A DNA stretch of 64,000 bases. It comes from Escherichia phage JP4. The notes beneath the pieces were generated by a model. That model searched no databases. It was not told where the DNA came from and saw only the letters and a program-made list of their open reading frames with translations. Position 1 is the stretch's first letter. The number at the start of each line of letters is the position of its first letter. Shown in pieces: positions 29,921 through 30,093 of this stretch. The stretch lies in sequence record PQ330092. The stretch is one strand, 5' to 3'. The position numbers were made by a program, and so were the translations under genes.

Positions 29921-29949
29921 TTGACTTATTTTGTCAGTACTGGCATAAT
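29921..29949 (+). promoter_or_regulatory. sigma70-type promoter, left member of a convergent pair
   Basis: TTGACT 29921-29926, 17-bp spacer, CATAAT 29944-29949. Confidence 0.6.
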
Positions 29950-29955
29950 GTATTC

Positions 29956-30058
29956 ATTGGCAGATAAGCCGTAGCCCATAGGGTGCGGAAGTGTATCTAT
30001 AGAAAAAGTAGTTTAGTACAGTTACAATTGTGCACCCGGTGGGTTAGCTGTTGTCATG
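29956..30058. ncRNA. convergently transcribed non-coding locus with box and inverted box
   Basis: Box 29972-29999 and inverted box 30042-56 can pair (11 of 12 positions); no ORF. Confidence 0.4.
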
Positions 30059-30064
30059 GGGTAT

Positions 30065-30093
30065 ATTATACCAGTACTGGATAGTGCTGTCAA
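30065..30093 (-). promoter_or_regulatory. consensus sigma70 promoter, right member of the convergent pair
   Basis: Minus strand: TTGACA (30093-30088), 17-bp spacer, TATAAT (30070-30065). Confidence 0.65.

Follow-up and report, generated by a model that had tools for sequence, protein, structure and literature searches.

Convergent promoters in the terminal repeat of Escherichia phage JP4 as a tail-to-tail pair from a putative new small-RNA family of RaK2-like jumbo phages

Ordinary small-RNA genes, including those of Hfq-type small RNAs (sRNAs), have their own sigma70 promoter and a Rho-independent terminator. Convergent RNA pairs are known from type I toxin-antitoxin loci, such as par of pAD1 (RNA I/RNA II) and hok/sok, and RNA elements with small hairpins are known from antitermination, in which lambda nut consists of boxA and boxB and HK022 put is an RNA with two hairpins. 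In T4-type phages, PeSLs (promoter-early stem-loops) are composite terminator/promoter cassettes (PMC2839356, PMC4122927). In PA5oct, a Pseudomonas jumbo phage of the same clade but only distantly related to the phage studied here, RNA-seq shows two terminal-repeat transcripts without open reading frame (ORF), ncRNA001 and ncRNA002, which make up 1-5% of phage reads each (PMC7318152). Here we analyse 64,000 nt of Escherichia phage JP4 (PQ330092; this whole stretch is called the window), and in it a locus at 29921-30093 where two promoters face each other across a segment of about 100 bp.

The initial annotation of this locus had reported face-to-face promoters enclosing an ORF-less segment with a box and an inverted box able to pair, and had interpreted it as an antisense-controlled switch or a relative of type I toxin-antitoxin loci. 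As far as the parts are concerned, most of this description stands. In the promoter scan, the + strand promoter (TTGACT-17-CATAAT) scores 10/12 and the - strand promoter (TTGACA-17-TATAAT) scores 12/12, both with a TG extension, and the predicted starts converge at a distance of 101 bp. No terminator-like site was scored between the promoters, and no conserved ORF lies there; the ORFs of 25-38 amino acids listed in this interval have no Shine-Dalgarno sequence and are interrupted or replaced in WPEC3/EJP2 and 121Q. The + strand box (29972-29999) had been placed correctly, while the inverted box is located at 30032-30046 instead of 30042-56, about 10 nt away, with GCACCCGGTGGG at 30032-30043. 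The boxes can indeed pair, at 14 of 15 positions (two of them G-U). Judged by sequence, both represent one invariant core (CCC-AYA-GGGUGC), which belongs to two homologous units oriented in opposite directions. Our preferred explanation, given about even confidence, is that the locus consists of two tail-to-tail members of a multicopy family, the units of which are self-contained and produce immediate-early small RNAs (coordinates in Table 1).

The core motif CCCNNNGGGTGC occurs 19 times in the window, compared with 3.3 expected. Read in its own orientation, each site has a strong promoter before it and similar sequence after it, as also seen for CBB, GAP32 and Muenster in their terminal repeats; thus the + and - halves of the locus are two homologous units facing each other. 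Promoters of at least 9/12 are present at 70 of 83 core-motif sites from 7 loci (a few sites being counted in two registers), compared with 12.6% of random positions. In these 70 sites the distance from the end of the -10 to the core is 25-29 nt, with a short subclass at 20-22 nt, and 42 of them have TG before the -10. Both units of the locus have such a promoter, and their distances, 25 nt for the + unit and 21 nt for the - unit, fall into the overall range of 20-29 nt.

A covariance model, R1, which covers two hairpins (H1 and the bulged H2, described below) and the 3′ sequence, was built from 15 ungapped seed sequences including neither unit of the locus. It superseded an earlier MAFFT and RNAalifold run on unanchored sequences, which recovered the CCC/GGG stem alone and had H1 out of register. 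R1 recovers both the + unit (29953-30006; 52.2 bits, E 8.5e-13) and the - unit (30012-30070; 20.9 bits, E 0.002). Over positions 1-47200 of the window it gives 10 strong matches and 1 weak match, all inside the repeat at 26792-46905, while the 26.8 kb of unique window sequence contains no match. A terminal repeat holds 10-12 units per ~20 kb, and 6 of 10 units in this repeat are solitary.

The units share a common anatomy. The start region contains a conserved CAT/CAA, and H1 follows 1-2 bases later, with a stem of 3-5 bp and a purine-rich loop of 6-8 nt (AGAUAA, GAGAAA, GCGAAA, AGAACAA). The H1 stem is variable between copies and yet complementary, with at least 14 different stems in a parse which is independent of any model. 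In a 69-sequence alignment, all four H1 pairs contain many double changes (113 cells, compared with 37 +/- 4 in shuffled and at most 36 in slid controls), and 93.8% of cells are paired. Between members of the genus, the + unit has its UGGC/GCCG stem of H1 replaced by AUUG/CAAU, and this swap and the model-independent parse agree with the double-change counts. About 20% of the family has no H1 and retains an A-rich stretch such as GAAACAA. At the locus, the + unit has an H1 with purine-rich loop, while the - unit has none in this phage and belongs, with its A-rich 5′ part, to the H1-less subclass. A pseudoknot between the H1 loop and the 3′ tail was considered and dropped, as complementarity was seen by eye in the AGAUAA subfamily alone (AGAUA/UAUCU) and not in others.

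The second hairpin, H2 (U-R-R-CCC-AYA-GGG-U-G), has a 5-bp stem with one bulged purine and is almost invariant. An alternative hairpin, H2′, pairs GGGUG(C) with (G)YRYCY after 6-8 nt; it uses the 3′ arm of H2, so that H2 and H2′ are mutually exclusive. H2′ is paired in 91% of cells, compared with 32-66% in slid controls, and the variation at its positions 14-18 consists almost entirely of transitions keeping G or U pairing. In average, the stability is -4.0 kcal/mol for H2 and -2.9 kcal/mol for H2′, and H2′ is the stronger one in 36 of 76 sequences. The double use of GGGUG in both hairpins would explain that it never changes. In the - unit of the locus, H2′ is GGGUGC-ACAAUU-GUAACU with 5/6 pairs. 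The tail is A/U-rich and often ends at an AGUACUG element; GTACT is found 20-24 nt past the core in 23 of 81 units, compared with ~3% per 5-nt bin at random positions.

Conservation was compared at two distances. Among 8 Asteriusvirus genomes, both + strand hexamers and the - strand -35 are invariant, and there is variation between the promoters. In 7 of 8, the - strand -10 reads TATAAT or CATAAT; in the unverified CMSTMSU record it falls within a damaged stretch. In RaK2, GAP32 and CBB the -35 and -10 of the + promoter are retained with a diverged spacer, and in Mimasvirus, Munch-like and Hallingskeid-like phages only the RNA part of the + unit (29956-30006) is retained, at 80-88% identity. 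The + unit H1 in 121Q, A4 and TH47 differs from that of this phage, and the same - unit in WPEC3 and EJP2 has a canonical H1 (GAC-GAGAAA-GUC). The 5′ modules of both units (29950-29975 and 30044-30064) are exchanged as blocks within Asteriusvirus with the cores retained, which suggests frequent exchange between family copies.

The promoter part has features of its own. As a rule, the family -35 is part of an inverted repeat ending at the -10, and is found in its 5′ arm; for example, GGGATTGACTCCGGTCAGTCCC-TTTGC-TATTAT, or at the locus GCCAGTATTGAC...GTCAGTACTGGC. Equivalent hairpins in GAP32 are annotated as stem_loop or as terminator of the upstream gene, and the element is therefore a composite terminator-promoter. 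The arms of the repeat at 29914-29944 are paired in the RNA fold of - strand read-through, and the repeat is a possible stop for the - unit RNA on the - strand. An A9 run (T9 on the + strand, 30097-30105) takes the UP-element position of the - promoter. Another explanation would be a DNA-level cassette, in which PeSL-like terminator-promoter repeats punctuate transcription and provide recombination points for small early genes, with the transcribed part having no function. The -35 within a terminator hairpin, the near-consensus early promoter beside it, the many small ORFan genes around, a published PeSL description (PMC4122927) and the module swaps between close relatives, which suggest recombination between copies, all fit this explanation. 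However, neither a recombination site nor a double-stranded DNA site would be expected to show compensatory changes in H1, and an invariant segment of ~35 nt past the start is retained across genera with different flanking genes. The single apparent flanking indel tested (slurp01 and similar records) turned out to be a BLAST artefact of the repeated promoter. We regard this cassette explanation as improbable.

The arrangement in pairs is stereotyped. A similar arrangement noticed earlier at 27982-28163 is the same kind of pair (+ promoter 9/12, - promoter 11/12). In R1-hit coordinates, 14 convergent pairs, which come from several genera, share a core gap of exactly 45 nt (window, 2; CBB, 3; GAP32, 3; a Yersinia phage contig, 1; uncultivated jumbo contigs, 5), and other convergent pairs have gaps of 63 nt (four) or 56 nt (one). 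A length of 45 nt equals two abutted H2′-plus-tail segments, so the units of such a pair join directly at their tails. Where pairs were inspected, the tail of one partner is U-rich and that of the other A-rich; at this locus, a U5 run is in the tail of the - unit. Since two homologous units are joined in this way, the 102 nt from start to start form an imperfect palindrome. RNAs spanning it fold into an imperfect hairpin of ~45 bp, with -38 kcal/mol (z -5.0) for the + strand and -28.8 kcal/mol (z -4.7) for the - strand. RNA crossing the midpoint is complementary to the partner RNA, and the two would overlap if the units read through. The + unit orthologues in RaK2, Muenster, GAP32 and CBB have no facing partner, and the partner at this site is thus a genus-level feature.

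These pairs bear directly on the reading as an antisense switch or type I toxin-antitoxin-like locus, in which RNA pairing or polymerase collision controls a neighbouring function. Strong promoters converging at 101 bp with no terminator between, fully complementary read-through RNAs and a genus-conserved arrangement that recurs at fixed spacing speak for it, and indeed the convergent geometry is real, conserved in the genus and stereotyped, with collision and sense/antisense pairing plausible. It is the kind of locus that differs from what had been proposed. The two sides are copies of one RNA family rather than a regulator and its target, the members of this family are mostly solitary, and the orthologues of the + unit in four other phages are without partner. 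Moreover, no conserved ORF of any size is found inside or beside the pair, and without a toxin ORF, its defining feature, the toxin-antitoxin analogy fails. A switch acting on neighbours is not indicated, because genes 29660 and 30319 have separate signals, with promoters and terminators of their own: gene 29660 ends upstream of the inverted repeat enclosing the + strand -35, and gene 30319 has two further promoters (30141-30168 and 30259-30286). From the above, this reading is highly unlikely.

In order to find the range of the family, R1 was applied to other phages. It gave 69 matches in 11 loci from CBB, GAP32, Muenster, RaK2, 121Q, a Yersinia phage and uncultivated contigs. A further search, in which parts of CBB and GAP32 were covered again, gave 43 more matches, all but one marginal match on jumbo-phage contigs of ~350 kb or on one 109-kb fragment of such a phage. 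In RaK2, the matches of a stringent pattern all lie within the ~19 kb corresponding to the Muenster terminal repeat. With R1, the 40 kb of the PA5oct terminal repeat that were covered gave no member (best E 0.1), and none was found in complete E. coli genomes; among 185,579 bacterial and archaeal genomes (one per species, one stringent pattern) there were 19 scattered pattern matches, none of which was confirmed by R1. A looser pattern in viral contigs gave mostly chance single matches, and R1 confirmed jumbo-phage contigs only.

Known RNA classes do not account for the units. The whole window has no match to Rfam 15 at the gathering threshold; at E <=10, the region 27700-31800 has four chance-level matches of 15.6-20.8 bits, compared with gathering cut-offs of 44-77 bits. 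One of these, RT-6 (30057-30128, 15.6 bits), overlaps the - promoter region and none of the unit RNAs, and another, TtnuCD8 (27937-27993), touches the -35 of the degenerate unit V1. ARAGORN detected no tRNA or tmRNA in the window. A ribozyme, a riboswitch, a CRISPR-repeat mimic and a ToxI-like repeat were considered as well, and neither Rfam nor the type I-E/I-F repeat sequences speak for any of them. An RfaH ops-like element was also rejected: the resemblance is confined to part of one member and is not conserved in the family, and GGCGGTAG does not occur in the repeat. We found no description of this RNA family in the searchable literature, and the published description of CBB gives promoters and terminators with no such element among them. 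By all appearances, this is a previously undescribed RNA family, specific to the direct terminal repeat of RaK2-like enterobacterial jumbo phages.

Over the 1.2 kb around the locus, the identity with Asteriusvirus jumbo phages amounts to 98-99% (Salmonella phage SD-6_S16; Escherichia phages EC.P1, PBECO4 and others); in these phages, the annotated genes around the locus are all on the + strand and all encode small hypothetical proteins, and by this similarity the window is Asteriusvirus (PBECO4/121Q-like) DNA. It contains an exact tandem duplication, in which 26792-46905 is repeated from 46906 onward at an offset of 20,114 bp, and every feature of 26792-43886 is present again at +20,114. Direct terminal repeats of ~20-21 kb have been shown experimentally for Asteriusvirus (PMC13070987), a length which the duplication fits, and the matching region is annotated as terminal repeat in three relatives. 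The window holds two adjacent terminal-repeat copies, as if a linear genome had been written from end to start. The locus lies ~3.1 kb from the left end of the repeat and therefore in the presumed early region.

This position, together with the palindrome, leaves room for a double-stranded DNA element, in which a 102-bp palindrome flanked by CAGTACTG serves as a cruciform or as a binding site for protein, with a role such as replication initiation, end protection or repression, and the promoters are secondary. The length and significance of the palindrome speak for it, as do the 79 occurrences of CAGTACTG (0.6 expected), which is present in both promoter spacers, and a syntenic pair ~1 kb from the terminus in this phage and CBB. 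Yet the majority of units are solitary and hence form no palindrome, and both the fixed orientation and distance of the core to its own promoter on either strand and the covariation of H1 point to a transcribed product. We give this explanation very little credence.

Where the RNAs end differs between the strands. The solitary - strand copies examined, from Asteriusvirus, Alcyoneusvirus, Mimasvirus, the Yersinia phage and uncultivated relatives, mostly have a GC-rich hairpin and a U-rich tract 35-45 nt past the core, and this stop hairpin is often the bidirectional terminator of a facing + gene. They are predicted to give discrete RNAs of ~100-110 nt, laid out like ordinary small-RNA genes. 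The + strand copies always lie upstream of same-strand genes with no clear terminator between, and here the main rival to independent small RNAs arises, namely a cis-acting leader, which would determine if polymerase coming from the upstream promoter goes on into the early genes downstream. In an attenuator, H2 would serve as antiterminator, and H2′ followed by the U-rich tail would be a weak terminator governed by an early phage protein; alternatively, the unit could be a nut/put-like element giving polymerase resistance to termination. For the pair, read-through of the - unit would mean that + genes are silenced at a later time of infection. H2 and H2′, being mutually exclusive and about equally stable, suit an attenuator, and the U run directly after H2′ scores as terminator in a few members (28044-28063, where H2′ of V1 is followed by U7; GAP32 17348+; CBB 15231+). 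H1 loops such as GAGAAA, GCGAAA or the GACAA-like ones also resemble boxB loops, and two promoter-proximal hairpins resemble HK022 put. In most members, however, the U run after H2′ is missing (2-4 U in the 8-nt tail), and neither boxA (CGCTCTTA or GCTCTTTA, on either strand of the 20-kb repeat) nor an ops sequence is found in the repeat. About 30-35% of the core sites in this repeat, CBB, GAP32 and Muenster are on the - strand, and the - copies followed up have no downstream gene and run straight into a terminator or a partner unit. For the + copies, a strong promoter belonging to the next gene intervenes ~50-100 nt after each of them. A leader function is on balance unlikely; orientation-independent placement, the fixed link with a private promoter, the covarying H1 and the terminators of - copies speak for a product transcribed autonomously and against both a leader and a DNA site.

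For the small-RNA units that we prefer, a chain of events can be proposed beyond the observed anatomy, family membership, covariation, regular spacing and phylogenetic range. Both promoters would fire, and each polymerase would run toward the opposite promoter across the 102-nt palindrome, with no separate terminator on its way. The two units would probably limit each other by collision or occlusion, by the long hairpin and by complementary read-through RNAs. Short RNAs would come from both promoters, and the flanking + genes 29660 and 30319 would be spared antisense or read-through transcription. The unit RNAs would act in trans, as a high-dosage ligand of a protein reading the invariant hairpin, with H2/H2′ as a functional switch.

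Several points weigh against this explanation. The - unit of this very pair is a weak member, with its low R1 score and no H1. The alignment behind the H1 counts was fitted to R1, so that these counts lean towards the model. In H2, the changes amount to 2 CG-to-UA only, and as the hairpin is almost invariant, covariation can neither support nor contradict its pairing; for H2′, the support is one-sided, consisting of wobble changes only. For the + strand copies, which make up ~60-65% of the family, no terminator ahead of the next gene promoter is convincing, and they could for this reason be leaders of longer transcripts. No expression data or transcriptome for these phages was found in the searchable literature, so promoter activity and RNA ends are inferred.

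Early takeover by jumbo phages that depend on host polymerase is poorly understood, and the ~20-kb repeats are annotated just as hypothetical small proteins. As its host promoters are near-consensus and lie in the early region, the family probably belongs to the earliest transcripts after DNA entry, and it provides a concrete, testable handle on early takeover, while R1 is usable for annotating these genomes. Tentatively, and with clearly less confidence than in the units themselves, the family may represent a new class of immediate-early small RNAs, which would act in trans at high dosage. During takeover they would capture an RNA-binding factor of host or phage, or re-programme it; such a factor could be an RNA chaperone, a nuclease or a defence sensor. 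Such a class would combine at least 20 diverged copies per virion genome, all in terminal repeats, with near-perfect host promoters and a bistable H2/H2′, and the pairs would be a compact bidirectional module supplying defined double-stranded RNA. The 45-nt tail-to-tail pairing is an unusual and precise architecture, which may show how strong convergent promoters can be packed harmlessly to their neighbours.

Table 1. Positions of the locus, its parts and the other family members in the window
Feature	Position	Strand	Remarks
Start-to-start segment	29956-30057	both	102-nt imperfect palindrome; cores 45 nt apart
Inverted repeat GCCAGTATTGAC-TTATTTT-GTCAGTACTGGC	29914-29944	+	encloses -35 of + promoter; ends at first -10 base
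Promoter of + unit (V2)	29921-29949	+	TTGACT-17-CATAAT, TG-extended; CAGTACTG in spacer at 29935-29942
+ unit RNA (V2)	29956-30006	+	predicted start near A29956; tail A-rich
H1 of V2	29958-29971	+	UGGC-AGAUAA-GCCG
Bulged hairpin H2 of V2	29972-29985	+	surrounds core 29975-29986
Alternative hairpin H2′ of V2	29981-29998	+	GGGUGC-GGAAGU-GUAUCU; 6/6 pairs
RNA of - unit (U4)	30012-30057	-	predicted start near A30057; core 30043-30032
Promoter of - unit (U4)	30065-30105	-	TTGACA 30093-30088, 17-nt spacer, TATAAT 30070-30065, TG extension; CCAGTACTGG in spacer
Second copy of whole locus	50035-50207	both	exact; next terminal-repeat copy, offset 20,114; motif positions repeat
Paralogous convergent pair V1/U3	27982-28163	both	core gap 45 nt
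Pair partner V1, degenerate	28014-28070	+	14.3 bits, E 0.19; CCC arm lost; promoter 27982-28011
Pair partner U3	28076-28130	-	54.4 bits; promoter 28163-28136
U2, solitary	27861-27915	-	56.1 bits
U5, solitary	31544-31598	-	53.1 bits; followed by bidirectional terminator 31502-31524, predicted RNA ~100 nt
Family member	35914-35968	+	57.7 bits
Family member	37572-37626	+	39 bits
Family member, H1-less subclass	39934-39983	+	37.4 bits
Family member	43203-43257	+	65.6 bits
Family member, H1-less subclass	45461-45510	+	41.2 bits

Hypothetical ORFs have been annotated across units or pairs in related phages (CBB gp007, - strand, 3793-3966; 121Q gene 270, 114-299; A4_267, 217-333), and these are probably spurious calls on non-coding RNA loci. 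Downstream of the + unit orthologue in RaK2, there is a 37-aa hydrophobic ORF (MLLDWLNTLSPAAGRRWAIGSSVAIVVGVIVLLVMIF; 3202-3315) with its own promoter. It is unannotated in RaK2 and corresponds to Muenster gene 023, which is called a membrane protein, and it is absent at this position in the window. Pfam gave nothing above threshold for four neighbouring proteins. Four records matching the region give Campylobacter jejuni as host, which is unexpected so near to coliphages and is maybe a labelling issue.

A second repeated cassette, with 12 copies in 28427-33640 (e.g. 29567-29616 and 30128-30177), drives the + strand genes. Its layout is AAAGTACTTGCAA-N16-TATAAT, TACAT, a leader with a GC hairpin (e.g. 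GCGGGAACTCTTCCCGC), a Shine-Dalgarno sequence and ATG. Almost all small genes have a copy of their own, and gene 30319 has two promoters in tandem. The CAGTACTG occurrences counted above include 29935-29942, 30072-30079 and 30112-30119, and AGTACT is found 238 times in 46.9 kb, compared with ~11 expected. These motifs are located just 5′ of the -35 in gene promoters (AAAGTACTTGCAA), in family promoter spacers (CCAGTACTGG + -10) and in TTCAGTACTGAA palindromes after many units; they could be the operator of some regulator, or hairpin arms.

The leftmost ~1.6 kb of the terminal repeat (26792-28460) is without annotation in PBECO4. It contains an array with 8-nt periodicity at 27538-27700 (units such as CTAAACGG and CTGGATGG). 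A - strand promoter (27823-27795) with a GC hairpin leader and two - strand family units aim at the genome terminus. This may be an end- or origin-related region. An exact direct repeat of 40 nt is found at 28316-28355 and 28369-28408 (spacing 53 nt), both copies of which begin with TTGATTCAGTACTGAATAATAGTACT.

Compared with the known systems, the locus shares with type I toxin-antitoxin pairs the facing promoters over ~100 bp, and its complementary 3′ regions would overlap as theirs do if the units read through; it differs in having no toxin ORF, in the mutual homology of its two RNAs and in that the same RNA mostly stands alone. With nut and put it shares small promoter-proximal hairpins, which have purine-rich loops (as boxB) or form a two-hairpin element (as put) and, like these, would act as nascent RNA. 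Unlike nut, about one third of the counted copies run toward terminators behind which there are no genes, and another promoter stands between the + copies and their genes; the loops are 6-8 nt long and not a GNRA-like pentaloop as in boxB. The PA5oct transcripts ncRNA001/002 are 236-451 nt long (PMC7318152), and no relationship of sequence or structure to the units was found.

The solitary - copies resemble ordinary sRNA genes, with a promoter, 5′ hairpins, an A/U-rich linker, a GC hairpin and a U tract within ~100-110 nt. Unlike such genes, the units exist in 10-12 diverged copies per 20 kb, a number doubled by the terminal repeat, their + copies have no evident terminator and they are absent from Rfam. 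PeSLs are similar in combining a terminator-like stem-loop with a near-consensus sigma70 early promoter, in their many repeats among small variable early genes and in signs of exchange between copies, which in the units take the form of internal module swaps. The units differ from PeSLs by a -35 inside the stem-loop, copies on both strands and stereotyped tail-to-tail pairs. Moreover, their promoter is followed by a conserved structured transcript of ~55 nt with a covarying and an invariant hairpin, while the passages on PeSLs that were consulted contain no conserved transcribed RNA. The analogy with PeSLs accounts for the terminator-promoter part and for the module swaps, and the conservation at RNA level does not fit it.

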